This document shows, one piece after another, positions 12,075 to 56,537 of a stretch of 64,000 nucleotides of DNA; position 1 is the stretch's first letter, and every line of letters begins with the position of its first letter. The stretch spans positions 7,070-71,069 of the forward strand of contig CAZDVZ010000001.1 of NCBI GenBank assembly GCA_964509125.1, read 5' to 3'. The notes under the pieces were generated by a model. That model ran no database searches, was not told the origin of the DNA, and was given only the letters and a program-made list of their open reading frames with translations. The translations under genes and the position numbers were made by a program. The stretch comes from an uncultured Oscillospiraceae bacterium. GTDB taxonomy: Bacteria > Bacillota > Clostridia > Oscillospirales > CAG-382.

Positions 12075-12098
12075 GAGCCGCGCAAAAATGCGCGGCTC
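12075..12098 (-). terminator. rho-independent terminator after tpiA
   Basis: GAGCCGCGCA-loop-TGCGCGGCTC, a 10-bp GC-rich stem 27 nt past the tpiA stop, followed on the minus strand by TTATCATATATATT. Confidence 0.75.
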
Positions 12099-12125
12099 CA
12101 CAAAATATCAACGGGATATTTATTT

Positions 12126-12902: not shown

Positions 12903-12929
12903 AATGTTACTATGCAAGTCCTTTCCAAA

Positions 12930-14138: not shown

Positions 14139-14205
14139 GGGAAAGATCCTCCTAAAAAAATTTCAATTTATCCAAACGCCTCGCGGCGCAGATTTAAAAT
14201 ATAAT

Positions 14206-37943: not shown

Positions 37944-38527
37944 AAAAATTAGTATCCATTTTTGTTGCAATTATTTCGATTTTTCTTGTTTCATGCTCGT
38001 CACCTGTAAATTACACAGTAGACAAAGAGCATAAAGCAAAGATGGAAGTCATATATAATATGATAAACGGTCTGATAGAAGAAGATGAGGAAACTTATTT
38101 AAAAGCCTTTGAGAGCGATTATATTGAAAACGTGAAAAAGACTTTTGATACGTTGGGAGCAGAGTATTTCTCTAATATCATCGGGAATGGATACATGGGC
38201 GCAGATGACTTTGATGGCTTTGTAAAATCTTTTTTCACTCAAAACAGTGACGCTTTAAAGATGAATTATGGCGAAGACGTAAAAGTGGACCTTTCTTTTG
38301 AATCCGTTTCGGAAACATCTATAGATTCTTTGGCAACATTTATTGATGATTATTCCATATCATACCAACTTCCCAAGGAAAATATTAAAACCGTCTGGAA
38401 TACATCGGTGAAATTTGAAGTAAAAGGCAGTGAAAATGAAAATGAATCTGTTTATAACTTTATTATTTTAGAACTTAAAGACGGAAATTTTGTGCTTCAT
38501 CCTCAAAGCTTCTTGTTTACATTCTAA
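37940..38527 (+). CDS. lipoprotein of unknown function
   Basis: Lipobox FLVSCSS. The ATG overlaps the ftsK stop (ATGA). Confidence 0.65.
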   Translation: MKKLVSIFVAIISIFLVSCSSPVNYTVDKEHKAKMEVIYNMINGLIEEDEETYLKAFESDYIENVKKTFDTLGAEYFSNIIGNGYMGADDFDGFVKSFFTQNSDALKMNYGEDVKVDLSFESVSETSIDSLATFIDDYSISYQLPKENIKTVWNTSVKFEVKGSENENESVYNFIILELKDGNFVLHPQSFLFTF

Positions 38528-41361: not shown

Positions 41362-42018
41362 ATGAAAGTTTTAATTACAGGAACATCCACCGGAATTGGA
41401 AAAGCTATTGCAGATTTGTTTTTGAGAAACAACCATTGTGTTTTGGGCATTGATCGCGATCCACCCACTATAAAACACCACAACTATACCCATTATGTTT
41501 GTGACATTCGTGATAAGGAAAGACTTCCCATTATTGATGATATTGAAATTTTGATAAACAATGCAGGAACTCAAAACGAGGACGATATTGACACAAATTT
41601 AAAAGCACTTATATACATTACCGAAAAATACGGACTTCAAAAAAACATCCATTCAATTTTAAATATCGGCTCTGCAAGCGCTCATACAGGCTCAGAATTT
41701 CCCGAATATTGCGCAAGCAAAGGAGGGGTCCTCGCGTACACCAAAAATGTTGCAATGCGAGTTGCACCTTTTGGAGCGACCTGCAACAGTTTAGACCCGG
41801 GCGGAGTACTTACTTCACTCAATGACTGCGTAATTAATGACAAAGAGCTTTGGGCGCAGATCATGGACGAAACGCCCTTAAAAAGATGGGCAACCGCAGA
41901 AGAAATTGCAGAGTGGGCATATTTTCTCACCGTAACAAACGGTTTTTGCACCGGACAAAGCATTGTTGTGGATGGTGGAGAATCCATAAACAGAAAATTT
42001 ATTTGGAAAGAAAATTAA
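41362..42018 (+). CDS. SDR-family oxidoreductase
   Basis: MKVLITGTSTGIGKAIA (TGxxxGxG), NNAG, and Y..SKGG (YxxxK). Confidence 0.85.
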   Translation: MKVLITGTSTGIGKAIADLFLRNNHCVLGIDRDPPTIKHHNYTHYVCDIRDKERLPIIDDIEILINNAGTQNEDDIDTNLKALIYITEKYGLQKNIHSILNIGSASAHTGSEFPEYCASKGGVLAYTKNVAMRVAPFGATCNSLDPGGVLTSLNDCVINDKELWAQIMDETPLKRWATAEEIAEWAYFLTVTNGFCTGQSIVVDGGESINRKFIWKEN

Positions 42019-42054
42019 AATAAGCTTTTATTCAAACGAAGGAGAAAAATGTTT

Positions 42055-43077
42055 TCACCTTTGCACTCTGCCGCTTCCGTCTCCTCCCGCCAGCTTTTCC
42101 ACTTCGGAAACAGCAACACGGTTAAAATCTCCCTCTATGGAATGTTTCAACGCAGAAGCCGCAACCGCAAATTCTATTGCATTTTTACAATCTTTACCGC
42201 TAAGCAAAGAATAAATAAGTCCGGCAGCAAATGAATCTCCGCCGCCAACACGATCGACTATGTGCAAGTTATATTCCTTCGAAAAATAGAAATCATCACC
42301 GTCATAAATCATGCCCGACCAGCCGTTATCGTTGGCAGAATACGATTTTCTCAAAGTAATGGCAACTTTTTCAAAACCAAACTTGGCTTTAAGCTGTTTC
42401 GCCACGGATTTATAAGACTCGTTTTCAACCTTCCCGCTATAAATGTCGCAGCCTTCCGCTTCGATTCCGAAAACATCCTTTGCGTCTTCTTCGTTGCAGA
42501 TACAAACATCAACAAAGCTACAAAGATTTGTCATCACCCGCCTCGCTTCTTCTCTGCTCCAAAGTTTTTTTCTATAATTAAGGTCACAAGAGATCTTTAC
42601 CCCCTGTTTTTTCGCCTCGATGCAAGCCAAGGCGCATATATTTGCAAGTTCGCCCCCAAGAGCAGGAGTGATACCCGTAAAATGAAACCAATCTGCTCCG
42701 CAAAAAATCTCTTTCCAATTAAAATCTTCTGACTTTGCCATTGAAATTGAGGAAAACGCCCTATCATAAACGCAAACTGATCCTCTTTGAGACGCACCCT
42801 TTTCCAAAAAATATATTCCAAGCCTGTCACCGCCTATGGTTATCTTCGACACATCAACGCCAAAAGCTCTCAATGCGTCGGAGGCACCTTTACCTATGGG
42901 GTTGTCAGGCAATTTTGTTATATAAACGCTGTTCATGCCAAAATTGGCAAGAGACACAGCAACATTTGCTTCCCCGCCGCCAAAAGACGCAGACAGTCTG
43001 TCGTTTTGGAAAAACCTATTGTAGCCATCGGGTGAAAGGCGAAGCATGATCTCACCAAAAGTTATAATTTTTGCCAT
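42055..43077 (-). CDS. kdgK: 2-dehydro-3-deoxygluconokinase
   Basis: MAKIITFGEIMLRLSP, PfkB motifs GGGEANVA and GGGDSFAAG. Its start overlaps the eda stop (TAATG). Confidence 0.9.
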   Translation of the reverse strand: MAKIITFGEIMLRLSPDGYNRFFQNDRLSASFGGGEANVAVSLANFGMNSVYITKLPDNPIGKGASDALRAFGVDVSKITIGGDRLGIYFLEKGASQRGSVCVYDRAFSSISMAKSEDFNWKEIFCGADWFHFTGITPALGGELANICALACIEAKKQGVKISCDLNYRKKLWSREEARRVMTNLCSFVDVCICNEEDAKDVFGIEAEGCDIYSGKVENESYKSVAKQLKAKFGFEKVAITLRKSYSANDNGWSGMIYDGDDFYFSKEYNLHIVDRVGGGDSFAAGLIYSLLSGKDCKNAIEFAVAASALKHSIEGDFNRVAVSEVEKLAGGDGSGRVQR

Positions 43078-43673
43078 TATAGTTCCCTCTTTTCTCTGTA
43101 TTTTTCCAATGCCTCTTTCACGAAAAAGCTGCCACCAATGGCAATAACTTTCTCAAATTCCAAATAGTCATTAATGTTGTTTCTGTCAATACCGCCCGTT
43201 GGAACAAATTTAACTTGTGGAAACGGAGCGGAAAGTGCCTTTATACCCTTTATACCGCCATAAATATTTGCGGGGAAGAATTTCACCGTATTGATTCCGC
43301 ACTCCAAAGCCGCCATTATCTCCGTAGGGGTTACACAACCCGGAATGTATGGGATGTCTGCATTTTTGCAAACATCAGCCACGGGCTTTGAAAAACCGGG
43401 GGAAACAATAAATTCTGCCCCCGCCTTCAACGCGCTTTCGGCCTGCTCGGCATTTATTACAGTACCAGCACCTATTGTCATATGGGGAAAAAGCTCTTTT
43501 CCTTTTTTTATCGCTTCTTCGGCACAAGCTGTACGAAATGTTATCTCAGCCACATTTATGCCGCTTTCCAAAAGTGCAGAAAGTATTTTTTCGGTTTCGG
43601 ATTCCTCATTTATCACAACAACGGGGATAAATTTTGATATTTTAAATAAATTTTCTGTATTCAAATACGACAT
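43077..43673 (-). CDS. eda: 2-dehydro-3-deoxyphosphogluconate (KDPG) aldolase
   Basis: Motifs VAEITFRT, GAGTV, FIVSPG and VKFFPA. The ATG at 43673 is preceded by GGAGTG. Confidence 0.88.
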   Translation of the reverse strand: MSYLNTENLFKISKFIPVVVINEESETEKILSALLESGINVAEITFRTACAEEAIKKGKELFPHMTIGAGTVINAEQAESALKAGAEFIVSPGFSKPVADVCKNADIPYIPGCVTPTEIMAALECGINTVKFFPANIYGGIKGIKALSAPFPQVKFVPTGGIDRNNINDYLEFEKVIAIGGSFFVKEALEKYREKREL

Positions 43674-43680
43674 ATAACAC

Positions 43681-44511
43681 TCACACTCCACTATATGCAG
43701 AAAATCCGCCATCCACGGCAATTACAGTACCTGTAACAAAACCACTTGCCTTGTCGTCTGACAACCAAAGAAGCGCGCCCAAAAGGTCATCTATCTCCCC
43801 AAACCGCTTCATTGGAGTAGCATTCAAAATCTTCTTTGTCCTATCCGTGGGATTGCCCTCTTCGTCAAACAGCAGATCCCTGTTTTGATTTGTCACAAAA
43901 AAACCGGGGGCTATGGCGTTACATCGTATATTACATGGAGCAAAATGCACCGAAAGCCACTGCGTGAAATTTGATATCCCCGATTTTGCCGCAGAATATG
44001 CAGGGATCTTTGTAAGAGGACGAAACGCATTCATTGAAGAAATGTTTATAATATTCCCTCCCGTTTCCACCATATCTTCTGCAAAAACTTGAGTTACAAG
44101 GAATGCGGAGGTAATATTCAGATCAAAAACGAATTTAAATCCTCCCTCGTCCAAAGAAAAAAAGTCCTTTACATCCTTTGTATCAGGAGTCATAATTTCG
44201 TTGTCACAAGTTGCCCTCGGATTATTTCCGCCAGCTCCGTTAATAAGGAAATTTATCTTTCCCCACTTTTCATTTATTTTTAGTTTTGCTTCTTTAATGT
44301 TTTCTTTATCAAGACAATTGCAACAAATGCCAATAGCGTTTTCGCCAATTTCCTTTTGAACTTCATCCACCGCTTTACCATTAATATCAAGCAAAGCAAC
44401 TTTCGCTCCGCATTCTGCCAAAGCCTTTGCAAAAGATCTGCAGATCACGCCACCTGCCCCTGTAATTGCAACTATTTTATTTGTAAGGTCTACCCTAAAC
44501 GGAACATTCAT
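43681..44511 (-). CDS. SDR-family oxidoreductase, probable fructuronate reductase (UxuB function)
   Basis: Motifs ITGAGGVICRSFA, NGAGGN and YSAAKSG. It sits between uxuA and eda, which supports the functional guess. Confidence 0.7.
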   Translation of the reverse strand: MNVPFRVDLTNKIVAITGAGGVICRSFAKALAECGAKVALLDINGKAVDEVQKEIGENAIGICCNCLDKENIKEAKLKINEKWGKINFLINGAGGNNPRATCDNEIMTPDTKDVKDFFSLDEGGFKFVFDLNITSAFLVTQVFAEDMVETGGNIINISSMNAFRPLTKIPAYSAAKSGISNFTQWLSVHFAPCNIRCNAIAPGFFVTNQNRDLLFDEEGNPTDRTKKILNATPMKRFGEIDDLLGALLWLSDDKASGFVTGTVIAVDGGFSAYSGV

Positions 44512-45551
44512 TTTTTGCCTCCCAATTCTTTTTCCACAGCCTCAAATAGTCCATTAAGATATGCCGCGCCCAATGCGCGATCATAAAGTCCATATCCCGG
44601 TTTTCCATCCTCGCCCCAAATATTTCTTCCGTGGTCGGGACGAACATATCCATTAAATCCACCTTTTACCAAAGCACGAACAACTCCGTAAATATCAACA
44701 TCGCCCCAAGAGGTCAAATGTCCCGCTTCGGTAAAATCCATTTTACCGGAATATTTTATCTGCCTTATGTGTGCAAAGAAAATTCTGTCTGCATACTTTT
44801 CTGCCATAGAAACAAGGTCGTTTTCGCGCCCCGCTCCCAAAGATCCGGTACAAAATGTCACGCCGTTGTGCCTATTAGGAACGGCTGAAAAAAGCTTATC
44901 ATAGCTTTCGGCACTTGTAATAATACGAGGCAACCCAAACATATCCCATGGCGGATCATCCGGGTGTATCGCCATATTAATTCCTGTTTCATCGCAGGCG
45001 GGCATTATGCCCTCTAAAAAGTAAACCAAATTTTGAAAAAGCTGTTCATGAGTTATATCTTTGTAAGCTCTAATAAGCTCGCCCAACTCTTCGGGTCTAT
45101 AGCTTTCGTCCCATCCCGGCAAATGCAGGTTATTCGGATCAAGGGACATGAGCTCGTCATGGTTATATGAAAGCGAATTGCTTCCGTCGGGAGCGTTTGT
45201 TTTCAAATTTGTCCTAAGCCAATCGAAAACAGGCATAAAATTGTAACAAATACATTTTACCCCATATTTCCCTAAAACACGTATTGTTTCCGAATAATTC
45301 TCAATAAGTCTATCCCGCGTGGGTTTGCCTAATTTTATATCTTCGTGAACAGGCACGGACTCTATTACTTCCATTCCAATATTGCAATTATCGCAAAGTG
45401 ATTTTAGCCGAATAATTTTGTCTTCTCCCCAGCGTTCACCAACTTTTACGTCGTAAACCGCAGTTACTACACTGCTCATGTTGGGGATCTGCTTTATATA
45501 TTGTAACGGAATAACATCATTTTCACCGTACCAGCGAAATGTCATTTTCAT
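44508..45551 (-). CDS. uxuA: mannonate dehydratase
   Basis: MKMTFRWYGENDVIPLQYIKQIP... is a typical UxuA N-terminus. 4-nt overlap with the downstream SDR. Confidence 0.9.
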   Translation of the reverse strand: MKMTFRWYGENDVIPLQYIKQIPNMSSVVTAVYDVKVGERWGEDKIIRLKSLCDNCNIGMEVIESVPVHEDIKLGKPTRDRLIENYSETIRVLGKYGVKCICYNFMPVFDWLRTNLKTNAPDGSNSLSYNHDELMSLDPNNLHLPGWDESYRPEELGELIRAYKDITHEQLFQNLVYFLEGIMPACDETGINMAIHPDDPPWDMFGLPRIITSAESYDKLFSAVPNRHNGVTFCTGSLGAGRENDLVSMAEKYADRIFFAHIRQIKYSGKMDFTEAGHLTSWGDVDIYGVVRALVKGGFNGYVRPDHGRNIWGEDGKPGYGLYDRALGAAYLNGLFEAVEKELGGKK

Positions 45552-45561
45552 AATTGCTTCC

Positions 45562-46890
45562 TCATTTTTGTTTTATTAAATATTTTGGGGTTTTATAACA
45601 TATATTTTCCACTAAAGAATAAGCAGAAGAAAGATCGTATTCTCCCCTCTCCACATATTCCGCAACAACGCTTGCAAGAATGCGGCGAAAAAAGTCGAAT
45701 CTTACATAACTTGAAAAGCTCCTCGAATCTGTAAGCATGCCGGTGCAAGTTCCCAAAACAGAATATTCTGCAATTGTTTGGAGATTTTTTCTTATGCCCA
45801 AAACAGTATCATTAAACCACCATGCCGCACCCATGCGCACGTTTCGAAACGCACCCGTTATGCAAGCCAAAGCAGGAAGTGGAGAATCATTTAGGGAATA
45901 AAGCACCAAAGAAGGGCGTTCGCTTTCAGGAATTTTAGCTAAAAGCTGCGTTGGATCAACATTTTTATTAACTCCTATAACATCAAATCCGCTATCTGAA
46001 CCGCATTTTTTAAAGTATTCGGGATTTACATTCCTTACAACGCCAAAATGAAGCTGAACCGTCATATCTCGTTTTTTGCACTCTTTTAAAATAAATGACA
46101 GCAGAAACCAAACGAGCTTATCTTGGTCTGAACCACTCATATTTTCTTTATTTTCATATATTTTTTCTGCCTCTTTAAAATCCGCAGAAAGCAAGGGGAA
46201 CTGTCCAAAACCTATGTCTGCTATGGTACATCCGTGAGATACAAAATAATCCATTCTCGCTGAAATGGCATTCATAAGTCCTTTTAATGTGCTTGTTTCA
46301 TACCCCGATATCAATGATAATTTTTCAAGATATCCCTTTTCAAAAGAAAAAACTTTGTCAGGTCTGAATGTCGGGGCAACAACCGTATTTCCATATTTTC
46401 CATGAGGTTTTAAATCATCCGTAGGATCATCCGTGGTAGCGATATATTCCACTTTAAATTTTTTCAAAAGATGAGAAACAGTAATGCTTTTCAACTTTTC
46501 CGTTGCCTCTTTGTATATTTCCTCTCCGCTTTCCTTGTTAAGGGGCTTGGTTATTCCAAAAATTTGAGAAAGCTCCATATGAGTCCAATAATAAAGAGGG
46601 TTTCCGCATAACATTGGCATTATCTCGGCATATTTCAAAAACTTTTCGCGAAAATCAGCATCGCCTGTAATATATTTTTCTTCCACACCGCAAAGACGCA
46701 TTGCGCGCCATTTGTAATGATCGGATTTAAGCCAAAATTCGCCAATATCGGAAAAATGCGCATCCTCGCTTATCATGTATGGGTCAAGATGGCAATGATA
46801 ATCTATAATGGGAAGATCTTTTACATGGTCATACAACTTTGTTGCCGTTTCGCTTTGAAGCAAAACAGTGTTATCAAAAAAATTCATCAT
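45562..46890 (-). CDS. uxaC: glucuronate isomerase
   Basis: Motifs IIDYHCHLDP, WLKSDHYKWRAMR and GMLTDSRSF. The ATG at 46890 lies 4 nt after GGAGAG. Confidence 0.92.
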   Translation of the reverse strand: MMNFFDNTVLLQSETATKLYDHVKDLPIIDYHCHLDPYMISEDAHFSDIGEFWLKSDHYKWRAMRLCGVEEKYITGDADFREKFLKYAEIMPMLCGNPLYYWTHMELSQIFGITKPLNKESGEEIYKEATEKLKSITVSHLLKKFKVEYIATTDDPTDDLKPHGKYGNTVVAPTFRPDKVFSFEKGYLEKLSLISGYETSTLKGLMNAISARMDYFVSHGCTIADIGFGQFPLLSADFKEAEKIYENKENMSGSDQDKLVWFLLSFILKECKKRDMTVQLHFGVVRNVNPEYFKKCGSDSGFDVIGVNKNVDPTQLLAKIPESERPSLVLYSLNDSPLPALACITGAFRNVRMGAAWWFNDTVLGIRKNLQTIAEYSVLGTCTGMLTDSRSFSSYVRFDFFRRILASVVAEYVERGEYDLSSAYSLVENICYKTPKYLIKQK

Positions 46891-46905
46891 AGCGCTCTCC
46901 AATTT

Positions 46906-47853
46906 TTACACATCAATCCATTTGCCGCCACTTTTATAGGAAGCGAGTATTAAGTTAACTACTTTTGCGCTTTCTTTGCCGTCAATTTCAAATTTTTTCC
47001 CCGTTTTTACACAGTTATAAAAATCCTTAACCAAGGCTTCATGACTACTTCCGTAGCACGACTTGCCCAAAGCGGCAGCTTCCCTTTCGAAATATTTAAG
47101 TTCTTTTCCCACCACAACATAATCGGGCATTATTTTCAACCACTCGCCGGAAACGCAGAGCGTTATCTCAACAGGGCAATCTTTATTGTTTCCGTTGGAT
47201 GCGTAAAAAGTGAATTCACCGCCATTTTTAGCCAAAATGGTTGCCGTGTCTTCCACATCAATAACGCCCTGCAAAGTAAGATTTGAAAGGCTTGCCGAAA
47301 GATTCCCCGGCATTCCGCAAAACCATTGCATAAGATCCAACGTATGAAGTGCTTGATTTATTAATACTCCGCCGCCCTCTGTAGTTGCGTGACCGCGCCA
47401 CTCCCCTGAATCGTAATAGCTTTTATCTCGGTGCCATGAAACCTGTCCAACGCCACCTTCAACTTTTTTCCCCGTTATATATTCTTTAACAAACCTATTG
47501 GCAGGGTTATATCTGTTTTGATGACAAACGCCAAGCTTAGCCGTGGAGTTTCTCTCGGCCTCAAGAATAATATCAATATCTTCTCTTCTTATACACAAAG
47601 GCTTTTCGCATAAAACATTAATGCCTCTTTCAAGACAATATACAATCATTTCCGCGTGAAGAAAATGAGGCGTACAAATATGTACAACATCGGGAGCTAT
47701 CTCATCCAACATCAATTTATAATTTGTATATCTTGCAACATCCTTCGGGATGGGGGCATTTGAATCGCATATTGCCTTAAGAGTGCCCATGTTCCTTAAA
47801 ATTTGCTCATGAAGCTTTCCTATTACGCCATACCCAATTATTACAGATTTCAT
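46906..47853 (-). CDS. Gfo/Idh/MocA-family NAD(P)-dependent oxidoreductase
   Basis: MKSVIIGYGVIGKLH (Rossmann), EKPL motif, and C-terminal alpha/beta domain. The ATG at 47853 lies 7 nt after AAAGGAG. Confidence 0.85.
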   Translation of the reverse strand: MKSVIIGYGVIGKLHEQILRNMGTLKAICDSNAPIPKDVARYTNYKLMLDEIAPDVVHICTPHFLHAEMIVYCLERGINVLCEKPLCIRREDIDIILEAERNSTAKLGVCHQNRYNPANRFVKEYITGKKVEGGVGQVSWHRDKSYYDSGEWRGHATTEGGGVLINQALHTLDLMQWFCGMPGNLSASLSNLTLQGVIDVEDTATILAKNGGEFTFYASNGNNKDCPVEITLCVSGEWLKIMPDYVVVGKELKYFEREAAALGKSCYGSSHEALVKDFYNCVKTGKKFEIDGKESAKVVNLILASYKSGGKWIDV

Positions 47854-47867
47854 TCTCATCTCCTTTT

Positions 47868-49037
47868 TCAATATGTACCGCTTGTATCGCTCACCGATGA
47901 ATCATTTGCTTCTTTGTGGCGTGAAATTTTTCGATAAGCGTTCAACTCTTCTAAGTATCTATCTTCATCTACGGGAAGAGAAATCTTCTCTCCGCCGTTC
48001 CAGCCGGAAAGCTCAATTGCGTTCATAAGCTCCACACCCATGAGACCTTCTTTTCCTTCTACAAATAACTGCTCTTTTCCCAAAATGGTATTTGTAAAAT
48101 TGTTGATTATTCCAACGTGCTGAAGATTGAGCCCGTCCGTTTCCACTTGTACGGTTTCTACAGGTGGACGATCAAAGCCTCCCTTGCAAGTTGCAGACCA
48201 TTTTAAACTGTCTTCTGAGTTTTTGTACCAAATGAGCTTACCATCTTCGCAGAGAAGTTTTCCCTTGGTTCCGGATACTTCGAATCGGTTTGTACCCGGA
48301 GTTTCTCCGGTTGTAGTTACAAAAACACCTGTTGCACCATTTTTGTAACGGAAAACCGCTGTCACTTCATCTTCAACTTCAATATCGTGCCATTTGCCAT
48401 ATTGGCAAAAACCTTGAACTTCAACGGGCATTTCGCCTACTACCCATTGAATAAGGTCTATTTGATGTGGGCATTGATTAATAAGTACACCGCCACCCTC
48501 TCCCGACCACGTGGCACGCCAGCTTCCGCTTGCATAATACGCCTCCGTTCTAAACCAATCGGTTATTATCCAATTCACCCTTTGAAGCTGGCCTATCCCA
48601 CCTTCTTTAATTATCTCTCTCATTTTACGGTAAAGACAATTTGTCCTTTGATTAAACATCATTGTGAAAAGCGCGCCCGTTTTTTTAGATGCTTCGTTCA
48701 TCTCTTTAACTTGCTTTGTAAAAACGCCCGCGGGTTTTTCACAAATAACATGAATGTTACGCTTGAAACACTCTATCGCCATTTCCGGATGGAGATAATG
48801 AGGAACTTCAATGAGAACAGCGTCACAAAGTCCGCTATCTAACATTTCTATATAATCGGTGAAATATTTTGCATCTTTATTTTTAGTCTTGCTTTTAACA
48901 TTTTCTATTTTTTGAGGATTTATGTCACACATTGCGGAAACAACTGCATTTTCCGCCTTCCCTTCATCAAAAATATTAAGGGCATAAGTGGAGCCTTGGT
49001 TGCCCAAACCTATAATTCCATATCTTACAGTTTCCAT
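47868..49037 (-). CDS. Gfo/Idh/MocA-family NAD(P)-dependent oxidoreductase (longer paralogue type)
   Basis: Motifs RYGIIGLGNQG, ICEKPAG and GGGVLINQCPHQIDL. Confidence 0.85.
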   Translation of the reverse strand: METVRYGIIGLGNQGSTYALNIFDEGKAENAVVSAMCDINPQKIENVKSKTKNKDAKYFTDYIEMLDSGLCDAVLIEVPHYLHPEMAIECFKRNIHVICEKPAGVFTKQVKEMNEASKKTGALFTMMFNQRTNCLYRKMREIIKEGGIGQLQRVNWIITDWFRTEAYYASGSWRATWSGEGGGVLINQCPHQIDLIQWVVGEMPVEVQGFCQYGKWHDIEVEDEVTAVFRYKNGATGVFVTTTGETPGTNRFEVSGTKGKLLCEDGKLIWYKNSEDSLKWSATCKGGFDRPPVETVQVETDGLNLQHVGIINNFTNTILGKEQLFVEGKEGLMGVELMNAIELSGWNGGEKISLPVDEDRYLEELNAYRKISRHKEANDSSVSDTSGTY

Positions 49038-49052
49038 TTTTACCTCACAAAA

Positions 49053-49817
49053 TTAAAAATTTCTGTTTATATACTCTATGCTTCTTTTCACTTGACCAAG
49101 AGTATCCGCCATATCTGCGGCGTTATCCTGCTCTACGAGAAAATATTCCGTCCCCGATGATTTTGCATGAGATATGAATTTTTCAAAATCAAGCGTTCCG
49201 TCACCCACAGGACACATTCTCGGCTCAAAGCCGCCTTCCGGCGTTTTTGTAATTTTGTAATCCTTCAAATGAACACATTCGATTCGCCCTTTAAGCCTGT
49301 CTGCAATTTCGCACATATCAACTCCGCCGTATTGGAGCCAATACGTGTCAAGAGTAAAATGCAAATGAGGAGCGTTATTTATCAAATAATCAAACACCGT
49401 TTCCTTGCCGTGACGATAAAATTCAAAATGATGATTATGATAAAACAGCTTGCATCCGTTTTCTTCCATCCTCATTGCGGCATCCTCCAACAAGGACACG
49501 GTTTCTGCCAATTTTTCTTTGGTTTCCATAGCCTCAAACGGCATCATTCCAAGGCCAATGTATTTGCATCCGAAAAGCGAATGTTCTTCCATTAAAGTTT
49601 TTGTATCATTTATGATTCTATCTATTGGCACGTGCGTTAAAACGGTATCAAGTCCCGTTTTCTCCGAAACCCTTTTTATCATTTCGGGAACAAACTTTCC
49701 TCCGGAATATTGCATGAAAGAATATCCCATTTCTTTAAGGGCGAATGCCGCCTGTTCAAAATCTTCCTCTGTTTTTAAATGGTTGCGAATTGAAAATAAA
49801 TTAAGTCCTACCTTCAT
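49053..49817 (-). CDS. xylose-isomerase-like TIM-barrel protein (sugar phosphate isomerase/epimerase family)
   Basis: Size and pattern fit the AP-endonuclease-2/xylose isomerase-like barrel (MKVGLNLFS..., ...HNHHFEF..., VHLKD..., EQD). Confidence 0.75.
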   Translation of the reverse strand: MKVGLNLFSIRNHLKTEEDFEQAAFALKEMGYSFMQYSGGKFVPEMIKRVSEKTGLDTVLTHVPIDRIINDTKTLMEEHSLFGCKYIGLGMMPFEAMETKEKLAETVSLLEDAAMRMEENGCKLFYHNHHFEFYRHGKETVFDYLINNAPHLHFTLDTYWLQYGGVDMCEIADRLKGRIECVHLKDYKITKTPEGGFEPRMCPVGDGTLDFEKFISHAKSSGTEYFLVEQDNAADMADTLGQVKRSIEYINRNF

Positions 49818-49826
49818 TTTGTCTCC

Positions 49827-50732
49827 TTACTCCACTTCAAAGCCGCCTTTTACTTCTCTGCAACCGCATTTTATCAAAAGTCTTTTAAGATATAATACCG
49901 CCGCATCAAACGCTTCTTCTCCACTTACAAAATTAAATCGATGCTTCATTTCTTCGCCGTCTATTTCGTTATATCCTTCAAATATTTTAAGATGAGGTTC
50001 TAATGTCAAAACGGTATTAACATTTTTACTGACTATAATCTGCAAAATGCGCTCAATATTTCCATCTCCAACTCCCGCCGGAACCAACTCACCCGTTTGA
50101 TGCACTACATCTTTAACGTGAAAATATAGACTTTTGTCCAACAATGCGGGAATTGTTTTGTGGGGCATTTCCCCAACCTGCAAAAAGTTTGCCGGATCGT
50201 AAACAAACTTCAGCCCCGAAACGGAATTTAAAAGGTCCAGAATCCTCTCTGTTGTGTCACCGTAAATTCCTTTTTCGTTTTCATGGCACAAGGTTATTCC
50301 ATAACTTTTTGCCACGTTCACCATTTTCACAAGACGCTCTATAACAGCTTCCCTATCTCCGTATGCGCCGTAAAAGCTAAACATCCTAATGCGCTCGGTT
50401 TCCAAAACATTGGCAAGACGGCACAAATGGTGCACTTCTCTCATATATTCATCAAAATCCACGGATATGTCAACTTTTCCCATGGGAGATCCCAAAGCAG
50501 AAAGGGATATGCCGTTTTCTTTAAGCGCTTTATGTACTTGTTTTCCTTCTTCTAAAGTAAAATTTTTTACATTTTTCCCGTCAACCGACCTTAGCTCTGT
50601 AAGATATATATTATTTTTTAAAAGAGAATTTATCTGTGTGGGCAAAGACTTACCTGCCTCATCCGAAAATGCACTAAGTTTTATCATATATAAATCGACG
50701 ACAATTTTGCCCGTTCCTTTCTTGTTTTTCAC
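49827..50732 (-). CDS. xylose-isomerase-like TIM-barrel protein (second, distinct)
   Basis: Motifs IKLSAFSDE..., LCHENEKGIYG and FHVKD. The GTG at 50732 overlaps the upstream stop (GTGA). An alternative ATG lies at 50687. Confidence 0.7.
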   Translation of the reverse strand: MKNKKGTGKIVVDLYMIKLSAFSDEAGKSLPTQINSLLKNNIYLTELRSVDGKNVKNFTLEEGKQVHKALKENGISLSALGSPMGKVDISVDFDEYMREVHHLCRLANVLETERIRMFSFYGAYGDREAVIERLVKMVNVAKSYGITLCHENEKGIYGDTTERILDLLNSVSGLKFVYDPANFLQVGEMPHKTIPALLDKSLYFHVKDVVHQTGELVPAGVGDGNIERILQIIVSKNVNTVLTLEPHLKIFEGYNEIDGEEMKHRFNFVSGEEAFDAAVLYLKRLLIKCGCREVKGGFEVE

Positions 50733-51262
50733 ACATAATGAGATATTTCCCCAAAAACGCTCACTTTCATTACAGACGGATCAATTTGAATTACGGTTTT
50801 TTGCTTTTTCTTGGCATATTCAACGGTGTAAGCGGTTCCTCCCTTTTGACCGTCAAAACAACAAACAACAACATCTGCATTATCTACCATATAACGATTC
50901 CGCTTCAAAAAACAATTCTTAGTATACGCGGGAGAAACCATAACGATTTTATCGGAATGTAGCAAAACACTTTCCCTTCTCTGCCTTTCACTAACATTCC
51001 ATTGTTTATCCTGGGCGGGAAAAGGAACGGCACAAATCAATTTTAATGTGGAGATTTCGCTTTTTAGCTCTATTATTTCCTCTGCCGTCCAAAGATCAAA
51101 GCCTCTTGCAACGCCGGAAATAAAGCTATCGTATCCTAACTCGATAAGCCGTTTTATCACCTGAGTTTGCAAACTTCTGAATCTTATATATTTTTCATTA
51201 AGGCTGTCTTCCGGAAATCCAAGTTTTTCGGGGCGATAACCTGTAAATGCCACAGTTTTCAT
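50729..51262 (-). CDS. DUF1273 / SLOG-superfamily protein (YpsA-like)
   Basis: MKTVAFTGYRPEKLGF...ISGVARGFDLWTAEEI...VPFPAQDKQW... parallels B. subtilis YpsA (ITGYKPFELGIF...ISGQLGVELWAAE) from memory. Confidence 0.75.
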   Translation of the reverse strand: MKTVAFTGYRPEKLGFPEDSLNEKYIRFRSLQTQVIKRLIELGYDSFISGVARGFDLWTAEEIIELKSEISTLKLICAVPFPAQDKQWNVSERQRRESVLLHSDKIVMVSPAYTKNCFLKRNRYMVDNADVVVCCFDGQKGGTAYTVEYAKKKQKTVIQIDPSVMKVSVFGEISHYV

Positions 51263-51294
51263 TTTTCCCTCTTGTTTACATATTACTTTTTTTA

Positions 51295-51322
51295 ATTATA
51301 CCATATTTTTTTTATTTTTCAA
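51295..51322 (-). promoter_or_regulatory. strong sigma-A-type promoter heading the DUF1273-to-kdgK operon
   Basis: On the minus strand: TTGAAA, 16 nt spacer, TATAAT with an extended TG (TGGTATAAT). About 30 nt upstream of the 51262 start. Confidence 0.65.
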
Positions 51323-51332
51323 TATTTTCGCT

Positions 51333-51373
51333 AAAAAATATAAGGGGCCGCAAAAAACTTTTTCACGGCTCCT
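51333..51373 (-). terminator. terminator after the LtaS-like gene
   Basis: 8-bp stem AGGAGCCG / CGGCCCCT (one G-U), followed on the minus strand by TATATTTTTTAG. Confidence 0.5.
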
Positions 51374-51391
51374 TATATTCAATGTATTAGG

Positions 51392-53455
51392 TTATTGATC
51401 ATATTTTTCAGACACGCGGTAATACTGTACAATATTATATTCGTTGAGAATTTTCGTATACGGACTTTTTTCTCCCGTTCGATACCATTTCCCGTCCTTG
51501 CCCTTGTATCCAAATGAGCTTATAATAGGGATCTCTGCCTTTACAGCGTCCAAATACAAATGAAAATCGGTTTTGGGCGCGCCGCACACTTCTAAAAGCT
51601 CGTTTGAAAGATAATTAAGGCTCATATCCTCGTTTTTTTCTTCTATATCATAATTCGCCCAAATAAAATACGGAGTTGAATGAATGTCAGCATTTCGTTC
51701 CGTACTAAGACTACCCAATTCTGATCCTAAAAGAGTTTCCGAAAAAGACGGGATGTGTGGATAATGGTCGCCGTAAAATACTACAACCACATCGTCATCC
51801 ACAGAAGAGAAGTAAGAAATCAATTTTTCCAATGCCTTATCCGTCTCGTAAATCGAAGATAAATACGATTGTGCCTCATTGTTATCTATACCGTCTATGG
51901 TAATTTGATAATCAGTTATTCTATACGGAGAATGGTTTTGCATAGTTGTAGCAAAAAGGAACATCGGGTCATCGCCATCTCTGTTTTCGTACAGTGAAAT
52001 TATCTCATTAAAAACAGTTTTATCGGAAATTTTGGCGTTGATATATTCAGGAATTTTTCCACCGCTTTTAAAGTAGGATGAATAATATTTTTTATCAAAC
52101 CCCATATATTCGTAAGCCTCTCCCAAGTCCCATACTCCGGGGGAACATCCTGCCAACGCTACAGTGCTGTAACCCCTATTTTTAAAATAGTTCACAAGAG
52201 AATCTTGGGGCGTTTTCACATACTGTGTGTATGCTGCCGATCCCATGGGATAGAAATGCATTGTGTTTCCTGTGAGAAATTCGAATTCCGAGTTACAAGA
52301 ATAGCCTCCGTAAGCAGAAACCGTAACATACCCTTTAATCGTATTTTCTTTAAGACTATTGTAAAATGGCATATAATCCTTGTTTGTTTTCAAATTACCC
52401 AACTTTGAAAAATCGGCAAACGACTCATCCATAATGGCAATTACAGTAGGCTTTTTGGTACCTGTTTCTTCCTCCGCTTTATAGTTTGACAAAATTTCGA
52501 GAGCTTTTTCCTCCGAATAACCATCCGGCTCGGTGGTTGTGGAATTTATAACATCCATGCAAAAGAAAAGGACATTACCCACTTCCATATATGTGCTCTT
52601 ATCTTCATAACCGGAATAGTTAAGCTTTATTATTCTTTTTTCCACCCCATAATCAAAAAGCCTGGCGTTGAAAGCGGTAAACAAAACGGAAAGGCACAAG
52701 AAACCTACGCCAAATCCAATTCTGATTTTTCCTTTAGGAGTTTCGATTTTTGTAAAGATCAGAATAAGAACGCATAACGTAAAATACAAGATCGCAAAGG
52801 CGAGAACTTGAGGCCCAACACCCGAAAAGACAGAATACTCCGATGATATCTCCACAGCAGACTGCAAGTTATTTATGTCGGACGCTCTGATGGGTGCGCC
52901 CCTGAAAGCATAAACAAAATATTGAAGAATTCCGTAAAATACGCAAACAAAAGTTATAAATCCATAATAGATTTTATGCGACAATGCCCTTTTAAACAAA
53001 AATGATCCGGGAAGATAAAGCAAATACACAAACAAAGGCGCAACTATCATGAAAGCGATATTTTCTTTTAAAGGATTCGCTGCCATGGTAGATTCTGTAA
53101 AAACGTAAGAGCTTACAGCAAACAGTATTCCAAGTCCCCATCCTGTACACCTCGGCTTACGTTTTTTCACTATTCCTATTACCGGAAGCGCAATGCTTAT
53201 TACACAAATTAAAACAACTTTGGCTATCATCCAATTTATGCTTTTGGGATCATTTAAAATTTTCTCTTTATTTTCAAAAAGCGATTTATTTATATCATTA
53301 GCGCCAATCATAAGTGCGACGAACGGCAAGTAATACAATATAACAGTATCTGCTTTTTCCCAAAGCCACAAAATCGCAACTTTTATTTTCTTCGTTAAGC
53401 GGGAAGATAAAAGCTTATTCGACACGTTATTTATAAATTCCTTTATTTTTGTCAT
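51392..53455 (-). CDS. LTA-synthase/sulfatase-family membrane protein (multi-TM N-terminus, extracellular alkaline-phosphatase-fold domain)
   Basis: About 300 aa of TM helices, then a sulfatase-type region (IAIMDESF..., FATTMQNHSPY, FYGDHYPH). Confidence 0.75.
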   Translation of the reverse strand: MTKIKEFINNVSNKLLSSRLTKKIKVAILWLWEKADTVILYYLPFVALMIGANDINKSLFENKEKILNDPKSINWMIAKVVLICVISIALPVIGIVKKRKPRCTGWGLGILFAVSSYVFTESTMAANPLKENIAFMIVAPLFVYLLYLPGSFLFKRALSHKIYYGFITFVCVFYGILQYFVYAFRGAPIRASDINNLQSAVEISSEYSVFSGVGPQVLAFAILYFTLCVLILIFTKIETPKGKIRIGFGVGFLCLSVLFTAFNARLFDYGVEKRIIKLNYSGYEDKSTYMEVGNVLFFCMDVINSTTTEPDGYSEEKALEILSNYKAEEETGTKKPTVIAIMDESFADFSKLGNLKTNKDYMPFYNSLKENTIKGYVTVSAYGGYSCNSEFEFLTGNTMHFYPMGSAAYTQYVKTPQDSLVNYFKNRGYSTVALAGCSPGVWDLGEAYEYMGFDKKYYSSYFKSGGKIPEYINAKISDKTVFNEIISLYENRDGDDPMFLFATTMQNHSPYRITDYQITIDGIDNNEAQSYLSSIYETDKALEKLISYFSSVDDDVVVVFYGDHYPHIPSFSETLLGSELGSLSTERNADIHSTPYFIWANYDIEEKNEDMSLNYLSNELLEVCGAPKTDFHLYLDAVKAEIPIISSFGYKGKDGKWYRTGEKSPYTKILNEYNIVQYYRVSEKYDQ

Positions 53456-54969
53456 TGCATAACCCTTCCGTTAATTATGTGTATAAGATAATCCTTACAG
53501 TTTTCAAGCTCTTCCACCGTTTCATATGCCGGTTTTCCTGTTAGCGGGTCAAACAAATATTTATAACAAAACATAGCATAGCCCGAATAATTTTCTTGTG
53601 TCAAAGAATATTCAAAGCATCGTTTCAAAACATCTTTGTTTTCAATCCATTCCCGCTGACCCGTACCTGCGTTTTTATCTATTGTTCCGTTATAGCCCAT
53701 AATGGCTTTTCCGAGAGACATACCCGCCATAAATCTTATATTTGGGTTTGTTGTTATCTCTGACCACCGCTCATAAGTTGCCGAAAAACTCCAATTTTGG
53801 TGTTCCATTCCAAAATAGATCTGTGGCATAATATAATCCACATAGCCGTCTTCAGAAAGCCACGTTTTCACATCAGCATAATAACTCGTCTCCATGGAAT
53901 TAAGGTTTCCCGCAGGTGATATGCCAAAAATAACATTATCGTTTTCTGCTTTGATTGCAGAATATATGCCCGACACCAACGAGTTGAGATTTTGATATCT
54001 AAAGTCCCTAAGGGTTAAAGCGGGCTGCTTACGCCTGGCATAAGCATATTCTTTGTTGTCAAACTCTCTTACTTCCCCAAAATAAAAATAATCGTCCATA
54101 TGAATGCCGTCCACATCATAATTTCTCACGATTTCGGCGGCACCTTCTATAATTAAGTCTCTCACTTCTTCGTAAGCAATGTTCAGGTAATATAAATCGT
54201 TATAATCAAACAAGTATCTTTCCCATTCATCGCCCTTTTCGGCTTTTGCCCACGCGCTTGTAAAGTATATATCGCTGATTTTAGACATATCCTCCGGCGT
54301 CATCCCCCTCATGGGATTTATCCATGCCTGAAAGCTGAGCCCTTTTTTATGAGCGAGATCTATCATAATCTCAATGGGATCATATTTGCCAAAATCCCCA
54401 TAGCTTCCCGTTACATAATGAGACCACGGGTAATATGCCGAAGGATAAAAACTATCTGCTCCGGGGCGCACCTGAACTATCACTGTATTAAATCCGAGAG
54501 ATTTTAAATTTTCATACGCTTTAGACACATAAATTCTAAATTCCGATACGCTTCTTTGTGACGATCCTTCGCAATAGACCGACGTAAAATCATATTGCGA
54601 TATCCATACAGCTTTCATAACATCATAATTAAGCGGTAAATAATCACTATTTGCACCAACGTCCTTAAATCCGCGACGCCAAAGTACGTCATCATATGCC
54701 GAAACCGTTAAAAAACGCTCATATCCTTCCTGATCTTCATACTCATTCATTGTATCCAAGTCGGTACTTCCGTTTTGAAATTCATCTTCGGCGGAAATTG
54801 ACAAATCTCCCGTTGACGGATCTTCATCGTTTCTTTCGGAAAGATTTTTCCCATCTTCCAATTTTTCAAAATTTTCATCTCCGTCAGACGTCCCATCAAA
54901 AGATGAGCAAGAAAATAAATTAAGCAAAAAAAATATCATCAGCGCGGTAGATATTATACGTCTTGACAT
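53452..54969 (-). CDS. glycosyl-hydrolase-like family 10 (GHL10/DUF187, YngK-like) lipoprotein
   Basis: Lipobox LNLFSCSS. Motifs FNTVIVQVRPGADSFYPSAYYPWSHY and VDGIHMDDYFY. 4-nt overlap with the downstream LtaS-like gene. Confidence 0.75.
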   Translation of the reverse strand: MSRRIISTALMIFFLLNLFSCSSFDGTSDGDENFEKLEDGKNLSERNDEDPSTGDLSISAEDEFQNGSTDLDTMNEYEDQEGYERFLTVSAYDDVLWRRGFKDVGANSDYLPLNYDVMKAVWISQYDFTSVYCEGSSQRSVSEFRIYVSKAYENLKSLGFNTVIVQVRPGADSFYPSAYYPWSHYVTGSYGDFGKYDPIEIMIDLAHKKGLSFQAWINPMRGMTPEDMSKISDIYFTSAWAKAEKGDEWERYLFDYNDLYYLNIAYEEVRDLIIEGAAEIVRNYDVDGIHMDDYFYFGEVREFDNKEYAYARRKQPALTLRDFRYQNLNSLVSGIYSAIKAENDNVIFGISPAGNLNSMETSYYADVKTWLSEDGYVDYIMPQIYFGMEHQNWSFSATYERWSEITTNPNIRFMAGMSLGKAIMGYNGTIDKNAGTGQREWIENKDVLKRCFEYSLTQENYSGYAMFCYKYLFDPLTGKPAYETVEELENCKDYLIHIINGRVMQ

Positions 54970-54984
54970 ATTTCCCCCAACTAA

Positions 54985-55020
54985 ACATACACCTCCCTCG
55001 GTATCGGGGAAGGTGTATGT
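54985..55020 (-). terminator. terminator between the two GHL10 paralogues
   Basis: ACATACACCTTCCC / GGGAGGTGTATGT stem (one bulge), followed on the minus strand by TTTAGTT. Confidence 0.55.
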
Positions 55021-55034
55021 ACCGAAAAATAATA

Positions 55035-56537
55035 TTAATACTTAATTACTTCACCTTTAATGAGAGTGGTGAAATATGCTTTACAGTTTGCAACCTCTTC
55101 TGCAGTTGCCGCGTTGGGTTCACCTGTAAGAGGATCAAACATATAGCTGTATGCGAAAACAGCAAAACCACCATAATTTGATTGTTTTACAGAATATTCA
55201 AAGCATTTTTTGAATACGTCTTTATTTTTTGTCCATTCATCAGCGCCTGTACCGGCATACGGGTCATTTCCGGAGACTGCTTTGCCTAAAGACATACCCG
55301 CCATGAATTTTATGTTGGGGTTTGTTGTAACTTTAGACCATTCTTGGTATGTATATGGGAAGCTCCATGTCTGATGTTCCATACCAAAATAGATCTGAGG
55401 CATGATATAGTCAACATATCCATCCTGAGAAAGCCATGTTTCTACATCTGCATAATATTTATTATACATTTGTGTAATGTTACCTGCGGGAGAAATGCCG
55501 AAAATAACATTTTTGTTTTCTTCTTTTATCGCGGAGTAAATTCCCGATACTAAATTATTAAGGTTATCGTATCTGAATTTTTGAAGTGTAAGAGTTGCAT
55601 TTTTCCTCTTTGCTGCATTAAACTCCGTAATATCAAAATCAGGTTCTTCGCCCCAGTAGAAATAGTCATCCATATGCACGCCGTCAACATCGTAATTACG
55701 TACGATCTCGGCAGCAGCGTTAATGATATGTTCGCGTACATCTTCATGAGCAACATTCAAATAATTAAGTCCGTTATACTCATAAAGATAAGTTTTATAC
55801 TTCATCTTGGATTTCCAAGATTTAATCGTATAAGCATCATCAATCTTATTGATGTTTGCCGTAGACATTCCTCTCATGGGGTTGATCCAAGCTTGGAAGC
55901 TAAGATTTTTCTCATGAGCAAGCTCTATCATGATCTCCAAGGGATCATATTTCGCAGAGTTTCCATAACTACCTACAACGTAATGAGACCAGGGATAATA
56001 TGCAGAAGGATAAAAGCTATCCGCATTGGGACGAACCTGAACGATTACAGTGTTAAATCCCAAAGAAACAAGGTTATCATATGCTTTTTCAACATATTTT
56101 TTAAATTGAGCCTTCATACGCTGCGCGTTGTTTGAGCAATAAACAGAATTAAAGTCAAACTGGGAGATCCAAACAGCCTTCATTTTATCATAGTTAAGAG
56201 GAACATAATCGCTGTTTGCGCCTTTGTCTTTAAAGCCTCTTTCCTCAAGAACTTTGTCCGTCTTAGAAGCTTCAAGGAAGAGCTCATAGCCCTCTTGGTC
56301 CACATATTCACCACCGGATGTATCGTCGGTAGAAACGTCATCCTCAGAAACGGCATCAGAAACATCATCCGTAGAGGACGTGTTATCAGTATCCGCTTCG
56401 GAATTTTCACTCGATGATGCGGACGAATCGGTTGCGCTTTCATTTGCTCCGGAGCTTCTATCGGTATCACCGCCGCAAGCACACATTCCGCATACCATGA
56501 TGCCACAAAGCAACATAGATATAATCTTTTTAATCAT
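55035..56537 (-). CDS. GHL10/DUF187 lipoprotein, tandem paralogue with acidic Ser/Asp linker
   Basis: Lipobox GMCACGG. It has the same core motifs as 53452-54969 (FNTVIVQVRPNADSFYPSAYYPWSHY, VDGVHMDDYFY). Long collinear identity is visible by eye. Confidence 0.75.
   Translation of the reverse strand: MIKKIISMLLCGIMVCGMCACGGDTDRSSGANESATDSSASSSENSEADTDNTSSTDDVSDAVSEDDVSTDDTSGGEYVDQEGYELFLEASKTDKVLEERGFKDKGANSDYVPLNYDKMKAVWISQFDFNSVYCSNNAQRMKAQFKKYVEKAYDNLVSLGFNTVIVQVRPNADSFYPSAYYPWSHYVVGSYGNSAKYDPLEIMIELAHEKNLSFQAWINPMRGMSTANINKIDDAYTIKSWKSKMKYKTYLYEYNGLNYLNVAHEDVREHIINAAAEIVRNYDVDGVHMDDYFYWGEEPDFDITEFNAAKRKNATLTLQKFRYDNLNNLVSGIYSAIKEENKNVIFGISPAGNITQMYNKYYADVETWLSQDGYVDYIMPQIYFGMEHQTWSFPYTYQEWSKVTTNPNIKFMAGMSLGKAVSGNDPYAGTGADEWTKNKDVFKKCFEYSVKQSNYGGFAVFAYSYMFDPLTGEPNAATAEEVANCKAYFTTLIKGEVIKY

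Follow-up and report, generated by a model that had tools for sequence, protein, structure and literature searches.

The window analyzed here, a 64,000-nucleotide (nt) stretch of a contig from an uncultured Oscillospiraceae bacterium, carries on its minus strand four contiguous genes for two xylose-isomerase-like TIM-barrel proteins (TIM1 and TIM2) and two Gfo/Idh/MocA oxidoreductases (GFO-A and GFO-B), followed by uxaC, uxuA, a gene with UxuB function, eda and kdgK. Quite probably, the four-gene module (46906-50687) is a cytoplasmic, non-hydrolytic glucuronide-cleaving system of the P2B11 type, and the five downstream genes consume its product. Judged by homology, the module is a Clostridial member of this system and not a new pathway. 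A preliminary description of the same DNA had presented the module as a candidate new feeder pathway; the enzyme system had already been published in 2024. Two further proposals of that description have fared better. Oxidation-elimination of a glucuronide without a hydrolase is supported by one-to-one homology with the P2B11 enzymes, and the conservation of the gene linkage agrees with the supply of a uronate to UxaC.

The P2B11 system was recovered from a human-gut fosmid library screened with thioglycosides, in which fosmid P2B11, of Gram-positive origin, cleaved a thio-glucuronide (Nasseri et al., bioRxiv 10.1101/2024.03.25.586180; Nature 631:199 (2024)). Its four enzymes cleave alpha- and beta-glucuronides at similar rates via a 3-keto intermediate and also split alpha- and beta-thioglucuronides; glucosides are not cleaved (bioRxiv 10.1101/2024.03.25.586180). 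Activity requires the oxidoreductase Oxido1 (PDB 8TDI) and at least one of two 'isomerases', whereas Oxido2 raises the rate and is a poor substitute for Oxido1 (bioRxiv 10.1101/2024.03.25.586180). Both isomerases catalyze elimination on the 3-keto-glycoside and are activated by Co2+ or Mn2+; added NAD(P)(H) (nicotinamide adenine dinucleotide, with or without phosphate) has no effect, the re-oxidants being 3-keto sugars (bioRxiv 10.1101/2024.03.25.586180). According to the same preprint, no apparent transporter or regulator is found near the cluster (bioRxiv 10.1101/2024.03.25.586180).

BLASTP against the protein sequences in the supplementary information of the preprint paired the four window proteins one-to-one with the four P2B11 enzymes; TIM1 gave no match to Iso2, nor TIM2 to Iso1. 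The pairing was reproduced with the error-free copies encoded by locus L089 (Logan ERR8529885_352, 1-10236), which are 96-99% identical to the supplementary sequences. The strongest match is that of GFO-A. Its best PDB hit, over residues 1-367, is 8TDI, deposited as 'P2B11 Glucuronide-3-dehydrogenase' (E 2.6e-99, 336 bits), ahead of the second-ranked structure with 120 bits; inositol dehydrogenases reach about 80 bits and DgpA 60. Over its full length GFO-A is 45-48% identical to P2B11-Oxido1 (45%, E 3e-111 by BLASTP against the supplementary sequence). GFO-A residues N129, W161, R163, Y167, N187 and H191 correspond to Oxido1 Asn147, Trp179, Arg181, Tyr185, Asn205 and His209 in the numbering of the paper, which differs by 10 from that of the PDB chain, and all six of these named active-site residues are invariant in our alignment of the family (A1). 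GFO-A is thus predicted to be a glucuronide 3-dehydrogenase. GFO-B and P2B11-Oxido2 are mutual best matches (full-length identity 32%, E 2e-47), and GFO-B matches Oxido2 better than Oxido1. We predict from this pairing that GFO-B is an auxiliary or back-up 3-dehydrogenase; possibly it is a 3-keto-glucuronate reductase.

The two TIM barrels were assigned in the same way. TIM1 has Iso1 as its only significant P2B11 partner (about 270 residues aligned at 33% identity, E 4e-37; E 2.5e-45 against the L089 copy), and Iso1 shares its motifs HENEK, DxANF, H-x-KD and TLEPH, which do not vary among 55 homologues. A sequence search of the PDB gave no match for TIM1. Its AlphaFold2 model is a TIM barrel (predicted local distance difference test score, pLDDT, 91.8), for which a Foldseek search of the PDB returned generic xylose-isomerase-like barrels only, at a template-modelling (TM) score of about 0.7 (Art22, ketose 3-epimerases, AsbF, IolI and UlaE). 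TIM1 is predicted to act as a Mn2+/Co2+-dependent 3-keto-glucuronide 1,2-lyase, as a 2-hydroxy-3-keto-glycal hydratase, or as both. TIM2 pairs with P2B11-Iso2 (32% identity, E 6e-39 by BLASTP). In the PDB its best match is 8BVK, the AtOGE enzyme of Agrobacterium tumefaciens (E 7.6e-18), followed by 8TCS/8TCD (AL1/BT1, E about 7e-13). The catalytic His134 of AtOGE, its Asp163 and its metal ligand His189 align with TIM2 H129, D157 and H183, and TIM2 is predicted to be a 3-keto-glucuronide 1,2-lyase.

L089, whose Oxido1 is 99% identical to the published protein, is effectively the P2B11 locus and extends the view of its surroundings. The four genes, in the order Iso1-Oxi1-Oxi2-Iso2, are followed by an opposite-strand GH3 gene, an MFS_2/GPH-family transporter gene (7122-8612) and uxaC (8744-10162), the last two lying 3-5 kb downstream of the four. 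The presence of uxaC near these genes links the characterized system, too, to glucuronate catabolism. The window module and the P2B11 system, which comes from a Collinsella-like gut bacterium, share the same four protein types, the Oxido1 active site and the metal-site motifs of both TIM barrels; in both the four genes are clustered, and a DUF1080 partner is absent from the window operon and its flanks. The N-termini of the four window proteins, inspected by eye, show no obvious signal peptide. The two systems differ in that identity is only about 31-45%, in that their hosts belong to different phyla (Clostridia for the window, Coriobacteriia for P2B11), and in gene order, which in the window is Iso1-Iso2-Oxi1-Oxi2. 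Unlike P2B11, the window has its module in one operon with a complete uxaC-uxuA-uxuB-eda-kdgK set, led by a ypsA gene and without a linked transporter.

The open reading frame (ORF) listing, Pfam and NCBIfam scans and a direct reading of every junction together confirm the layout proposed in the preliminary description: ten tightly packed ORFs, all on the minus strand, from a promoter at 51322-51295 down to kdgK at 42055 (Table 1). This promoter is the top-scoring sigma-70-like site in 41800-51500 and is placed after a terminator-like hairpin (51369-51347) that belongs to the gene upstream. Pfam likewise bore out two PF01261 TIM barrels and two Gfo/Idh/MocA oxidoreductases upstream of the glucuronate genes. 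The junctions have gaps of 0-17 nt with ribosome-binding sites present, and the ATGA overlap at uxuA|SDR and the TAATG overlap at eda|kdgK, both part of that description, are there; no internal terminator was seen in the junctions. Between GFO-B and uxaC, stop to start, there are only about 15 nt, too few for a terminator or promoter. A 'GTGA' overlap between ypsA and TIM1, also described, is less likely. The most likely TIM1 start, by comparison with homologues of 282-285 amino acids (aa), is ATG 50687, so that the overlap is probably a 41-nt gap; the alternative start, GTG 50732, has GGGGAA about 10 nt upstream. The likely true starts of GFO-B (47853), uxaC (46890) and eda (ATG 43673) are also a few codons inside the maximal ORFs. 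Nine sugar genes and the leading ypsA gene probably share one transcript from the 51322-51295 promoter.

Table 1. The operon and its promoter, in the order of transcription (window coordinates).
Feature	Coordinates	Strand	Basis
Promoter, sigma-70-type	51295..51322	-	TTGAAA-16-TGgTATAAT, extended -10, 11/12 consensus matches
YpsA/SLOG (DUF1273), 177 aa	50729-51262	-	PF06908, 89.8 bits
TIM1, xylose-isomerase-like TIM barrel	49827-50687 (ORF open to GTG 50732)	-	PF01261
TIM2, xylose-isomerase-like TIM barrel	49053-49817	-	PF01261
GFO-A, Gfo/Idh/MocA oxidoreductase, 389 aa	47868-49037	-	Pfam/NCBIfam scans; PDB 8TDI match
GFO-B, Gfo/Idh/MocA oxidoreductase	46906-47871 (likely start ATG 47853)	-	PF01408 + PF22725
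uxaC, glucuronate isomerase (D-glucuronate to D-fructuronate)	45562-46890 (ORF to 46902)	-	PF02614, 451.8 bits; NF002794, 448.6 vs cut-off 387
uxuA, D-mannonate dehydratase	44508-45551	-	PF03786, 450.9 bits; NF003027, 464 vs cut-off 191
SDR-type D-mannonate oxidoreductase, UxuB function (fructuronate to mannonate)	43681-44511	-	NF006132, 395 vs cut-off 281
eda, KDPG/KHG aldolase	43077-43673 (ORF to 43721)	-	PF01081, 217.6 bits; TIGR01182, 235.9 vs cut-off 156
kdgK-type PfkB sugar kinase	42055-43077	-	PF00294, 122 bits

The last five genes had been read as the glucuronate route, and this reading stands. UxaC, the SDR-type oxidoreductase, UxuA and Eda each pass the curated NCBIfam cut-offs and make up the isomerase (Ashwell) pathway for D-glucuronate. 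The kinase is assigned as 2-keto-3-deoxygluconate kinase by context: it adjoins eda here and in relatives. Against NF041633, a model of an aldolase-kinase fusion with a cut-off of 700 set for the whole fusion, it reaches 567 bits on the kinase half, and it scores 244 bits to the KDG/KDGal kinase model NF041332, under the whole-protein cut-off. In line with the preliminary description, no glycoside hydrolase, transporter or regulator was found within the operon in the family scans. These scans also gave no transporter, regulator or recognized glucuronidase in the flanks, and a similarity search of the 64-kb window, with a query sequence not taken from a database, found no GH2-like gene.

From these assignments we propose the following sequence of reactions. 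Since the four proteins have no obvious signal peptide, the glucuronide would have to be imported, by a transporter encoded outside the window. GFO-A with tightly bound NAD+ would then oxidize the C3 hydroxyl of the sugar to give a 3-keto-glucuronide, as its homology to a characterized enzyme of solved structure suggests. TIM2, with TIM1 helping or overlapping, would abstract H2 with a His base, aided by Mn2+ or Co2+, and expel the aglycone by elimination; this step, drawn from homology, could accept either anomer and an O- or S-linkage, as in P2B11. TIM1 or TIM2 would hydrate the resulting glycal to 3-keto-glucuronate, there being no DUF1080 hydratase here. Reduced GFO-A, or GFO-B, would convert 3-keto-glucuronate into D-glucuronate. 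NAD+ would be regenerated in this reduction, and the net reaction would therefore be a redox-neutral 'hydrolysis'. UxaC, the UxuB-type SDR, UxuA, KdgK and Eda would finally convert D-glucuronate to pyruvate and glyceraldehyde-3-phosphate by the established isomerase pathway. The same recycling by re-reduction is postulated by the P2B11 authors (bioRxiv 10.1101/2024.03.25.586180). For the AL/BT enzymes, C3 oxidation, 1,2-elimination to a 2-hydroxy-3-keto-glucal, hydration and re-reduction were followed by nuclear magnetic resonance (Nasseri et al. 2024).

The GFO-A family is large, with more than 8000 clusters at 90% identity with E <= 1e-40, and at least 593 relatives came from scanning a single genome of each species for a sequence pattern. 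The best 80 relatives are almost all from metagenome-assembled genomes (MAGs) of gut, rumen or faecal Clostridia; the exceptions are a few from Treponema/Spirochaetaceae, one Erysipelotrichaceae MAG and one Lederbergia isolate. The nearest named relatives are MAGs labelled 'Clostridia bacterium', some of them from ruminant guts. Cultured relatives that carry the cluster include entries named 'Lacrimispora saccharolytica' and 'Agathobacter sp.'. Gene linkage was counted by tblastn with the ten window proteins in 82 non-redundant loci; synteny was not counted from ORF clustering, where a greedy ORF caller had chosen antisense ORFs in high-GC loci (cluster 5). Many contigs are short, and the counts are therefore lower bounds. 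A TIM barrel accompanies GFO-A in 72 of the 82 loci and a second GFO in 42; both TIM barrel types occur in 27, and all four module genes in 22.

Linkage of the module to hexuronate genes across genomes, a check put forward in the preliminary description, held in part. At least one of uxaC, uxuA, uxuB, eda and kdgK lies within 10 kb in 25 of the 82 loci, mostly from gut and rumen Clostridia, and on the same strand in 23 of these; the other 57 loci lack them in the available sequence. Of the 22 loci that contain the complete four-gene module, 12 also have hexuronate genes. The linkage spans GFO-A identities of 49-79% and several gene orders (L011, L013, L016, L038, L057 and L077). It involves uxuB in 18 loci, uxuA in 15 and uxaC in 10. 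Chance linkage would be about 1% by our own estimate (a single-copy 1-kb gene, 10 kb, a genome of about 3 Mb), which is not a computed control, compared with 30% observed. Genes resembling GH2 beta-glucuronidase (GUS) were found in 2 of 85 related loci.

Close relatives (GFO-A identity 69-79%) mostly show a divergent araC gene and then TIM1-TIM2-GFOA-GFOB-(uxaC)-uxuA-SDR-(eda-kdgK). The exceptions among them are L086, without TIM2, L088, without uxaC, and L087, without hexuronate genes; a cluster named Lacrimispora saccharolytica, at 79% identity, is isolated, with housekeeping genes around it. In five loci (L088, at 7355-14885, L007, L018, L019 and L048) uxuA-uxuB directly follow the module and uxaC is missing. 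The simplest reading is that uxaC, being shared with galacturonate catabolism, is encoded elsewhere in these genomes. That the module product there enters downstream of UxaC has no obvious chemistry and is improbable at best. The composition of the module itself varies. In many loci a single TIM barrel type is present, and in nine (L016, L026, L032, L038, L050, L057, L070, L078 and L079) the second oxidoreductase is a GFO-A-like paralogue with 39-53% identity to GFO-A. This variability agrees with Oxido1 and one 'isomerase' being enough in vitro.

Further genes of related types were seen around the module in some relatives. A third distinct PF01261 gene lies just upstream of araC or of the module in the four loci of cluster 13 (for example L081 6580-7416 and L001 5880-6662). 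Three loci have genes for GH4 (NAD+- and Mn2+-dependent) glycosidases near the module, such as L069 5734-7059 (cluster 19). GH4 enzymes likewise proceed by C3 oxidation followed by elimination. In L084, positions 1-6403, which adjoin the module and a second araC gene, encode a protein with a weak Hepar_II_III_C-like match, a flavin mononucleotide (FMN) oxidoreductase, a flavin adenine dinucleotide (FAD)-binding protein, an SDR and a further TIM barrel; this block may be a further uronate or glycosaminoglycan-related set.

The leading ypsA gene sets the window apart. Where the window has this YpsA/SLOG gene, relatives carry a divergent AraC-family regulator, and AraC-type genes are the commonest other neighbour among related loci (about 30 loci); no AraC-like ORF was found in the window. 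A YpsA homologue was found in none of 87 related loci. By this distribution the ypsA gene is outside the conserved sugar module, although it is probably co-transcribed with the sugar genes, and of the ten genes first taken as one functional unit nine are retained. The sugar operon may here be constitutive or regulated in trans.

Several observations count against the assignment of the module as a glucuronide-cleaving system or limit its detail. Identity to the characterized enzymes is 31-45%, so that substrate specificity is carried over from P2B11 at that distance. Turnover of the P2B11 enzymes in vitro is slow, and their natural substrates are not established (bioRxiv 10.1101/2024.03.25.586180). 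No transporter or regulator is linked to the operon in this genome. Among relatives, 57 loci lack hexuronate genes in the available sequence, many of them on short contigs; L087 and L090, for example, are well flanked and yet stand-alone four-gene clusters. The structural neighbours of TIM1 are only generic TIM-barrel epimerases and dehydratases and do not settle whether it is a lyase or a hydratase, and the split of roles among TIM1, TIM2 and GFO-B is deduced.

The alternative that survives best keeps the chemistry and changes the substrate, from a classical beta-glucuronide of host, drug or plant origin to another C6-anionic glycoside, such as a 6-sulfo-, 6-phospho- or sulfoquinovoside, or to an alpha-linked (4-O-methyl)glucuronosyl xylo-oligosaccharide of plant cell walls. 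Besides acting equally well on alpha- and beta-glucuronides, the P2B11 enzymes slowly cleave 6-phospho- and 6-sulfo-glycosides and sulfoquinovosides, which also weighs against a strict glucuronide role (bioRxiv 10.1101/2024.03.25.586180). Relatives come largely from rumen and herbivore-gut MAGs, and in L086 genes for a GH43 protein and a LacI regulator follow closely downstream. The genes recurrently linked to the module are nevertheless those of the glucuronate branch, uxuA, uxuB and uxaC, and not sulfoquinovose or 6-phospho-sugar genes; the version with alpha-(methyl)glucuronosyl (alpha-(Me)GlcA) xylo-oligosaccharides is a sub-case of glucuronide cleavage and does not contradict it. On balance we regard a different substrate as unlikely.

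A cyclitol feeder, one of the routes suggested in the preliminary description, is very improbable. Here the two GFO and two TIM proteins would convert myo- or scyllo-inositol via an inosose and a keto-gluconate to a hexuronate intermediate, in a Thermotoga-like manner. Inositol catabolism does use the same two superfamilies, the IolG and IolE models give weak matches, and IolI and IolE are among the distant structural neighbours of TIM1. The scores are, however, far below the cut-offs: 101 bits for GFO-A and 73 for GFO-B against 355 for IolG (TIGR04380), and 46 against 290 for IolE (TIGR04379). GFO-A reaches 81 bits to the myo-inositol 2-dehydrogenase 3CEA compared with 336 to the glucuronide 3-dehydrogenase, all four proteins pair one-to-one with a characterized glucuronide system, and no iolB, iolC, iolD or iolN-type hydrolase genes were found in the operon or in related loci. 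The family scans of the window turned up no other iol genes either.

Cleavage of C-glycosides (C-glucuronides) in the manner of DgpA/DgpBC, or interconversion of 3-keto-glycosides in the manner of YcjS/YcjR, would draw on the same family combination, which the preliminary description had also noted; either one, without uronate release, is likewise very improbable. GFO-A and GFO-B match DgpA in the PDB weakly, at 60 and 52-54 bits, which puts GFO-A more than 270 bits nearer to 8TDI, and neither TIM1, TIM2 nor a TIM1 profile matches a DgpB or DgpC chain at E <= 0.01. The related AL/BT lyases leave 3-keto-C-glycosides uncleaved, and the uxu/uxa linkage argues for a free uronate as the product. 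The PDB matches named for the four proteins include none to YcjS or YcjR, although no direct comparison with these two was made. Adjacency of the module to the hexuronate genes by chance or regulatory convenience, with no functional relation, is just as hard to sustain: it would accommodate the loci without a hexuronate gene, the stand-alone clusters L087 and L090 and a ypsA gene that is in the operon yet outside the conserved module, but not a linkage that recurs across varied gene orders well above the chance estimate, nor the fact that the proven P2B11 substrate class yields exactly the substrate of UxaC.

Other known systems resemble P2B11-type glucuronide cleavage in chemistry or in physiological role. 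The BT2156-2160 system of Bacteroides thetaiotaomicron and AL1-4 of Alistipes likewise start from oxidation by a GFO 3-dehydrogenase that binds NAD tightly, followed by a TIM-barrel 1,2-lyase dependent on metal, by hydration and by re-reduction (Liou et al. 2020; Nasseri et al. 2024). They are described as periplasmic and include a DUF1080 lyase/hydratase, and they act on glucosides and mannosides; glucuronides are not their substrates. Membership of the window module in this group was considered and rejected, as NF058561 (BT_2158_fam) scores 42 against 750 bits, NF058563 (BT_2159_fam) scores 33 against 650, there is no DUF1080 gene, and by eye the four proteins carry no evident export signal. 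AtOGE (8BVK), which resembles TIM2 in its kept catalytic residues, performs Mn2+-dependent beta-elimination of 3-keto-O-glycosides, in its case 3-keto-glucosides of natural products; its substrate, C3-oxidized phlorizin, is made by a separate oxidation step (PMC10628242). AtOGE has no link to uronate catabolism. DgpA/DgpBC and the levoglucosan system LgdA/LgdB also combine a GFO 3-dehydrogenase with xylose-isomerase-like TIM-barrel eliminases, but their dehydrogenases match at only about 50-65 bits, their TIM subunits do not match, and their substrates are others. The GH2 beta-glucuronidase (GUS, UidA) with the transporter UidB does the same job as the one proposed here, freeing glucuronate for UxaC, UxuB, UxuA, KdgK and Eda, and is unrelated in sequence to the window module. 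It is a single Koshland hydrolase, is strictly beta-specific and does not cleave thio-glucuronides.

The flanks of the operon encode an LtaS-like sulfatase-domain protein, two GHL10 proteins, MscL, an SDR and Vut_1. Directly upstream, at 51392-56537 on the minus strand, are the gene for the LtaS-like protein, a membrane protein of 687 aa, and a tandem pair of paralogous GHL10 genes (PF02638; 505 and 500 aa), set apart from the operon by the terminator-like hairpin and the promoter. Elsewhere in the window, an ORF of 454 aa (3926-5290, minus strand) combines a BPD_transp_1 permease and an ABC_tran ATPase and thus encodes a fused ATP-binding cassette (ABC) transporter component; it adjoins a class-V aminotransferase gene and is unrelated to the glucuronide module. 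Six ORFs of 195-473 aa have no Pfam family at thresholds of E <= 0.001 / E <= 1e-5: 1234-2229(-), 10408-11829(-), 24462-25340(+), 37940-38527(+), 57290-58138(+) and 59501-60373(-).

The enzymes are therefore not new, and what the window adds is their setting. In the searchable literature we found no report of an operon-level fusion of the module to a complete hexuronate pathway or of its recurrence, though prior publication is possible, and no follow-up study of the P2B11 system from 2024 on is evident from titles and abstracts. The P2B11 chemistry came from one fosmid and was slow in vitro; this operon and its many relatives supply a physiological context, and the fusion to the hexuronate pathway provides a physiological purpose for the published chemistry and points to widespread GUS-independent use of glucuronides. 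Bacterial deconjugation of drug, steroid and bilirubin glucuronides is at present credited almost entirely to GH2 beta-glucuronidases, and GUS inhibitors and 'estrobolome' surveys are built on this assumption. We give an even chance to the broader proposition that the oxidative, non-Koshland route is a dedicated and widespread entry for glucuronides among Clostridia of gut and rumen, coupled firmly to uxaC-uxuA-uxuB-eda-kdgK and as a rule without a linked GH2 gene, rather than a side activity met once in a fosmid screen. If it is true, aglycones would be released independently of GUS from the glucuronides of drugs, hormones, bile pigments and plants and from alpha-(Me)GlcA xylan fragments, by a mechanism that is probably insensitive to GUS inhibitors. 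The genes of the module provide concrete markers for metagenomic surveys of such GUS-independent deconjugation.

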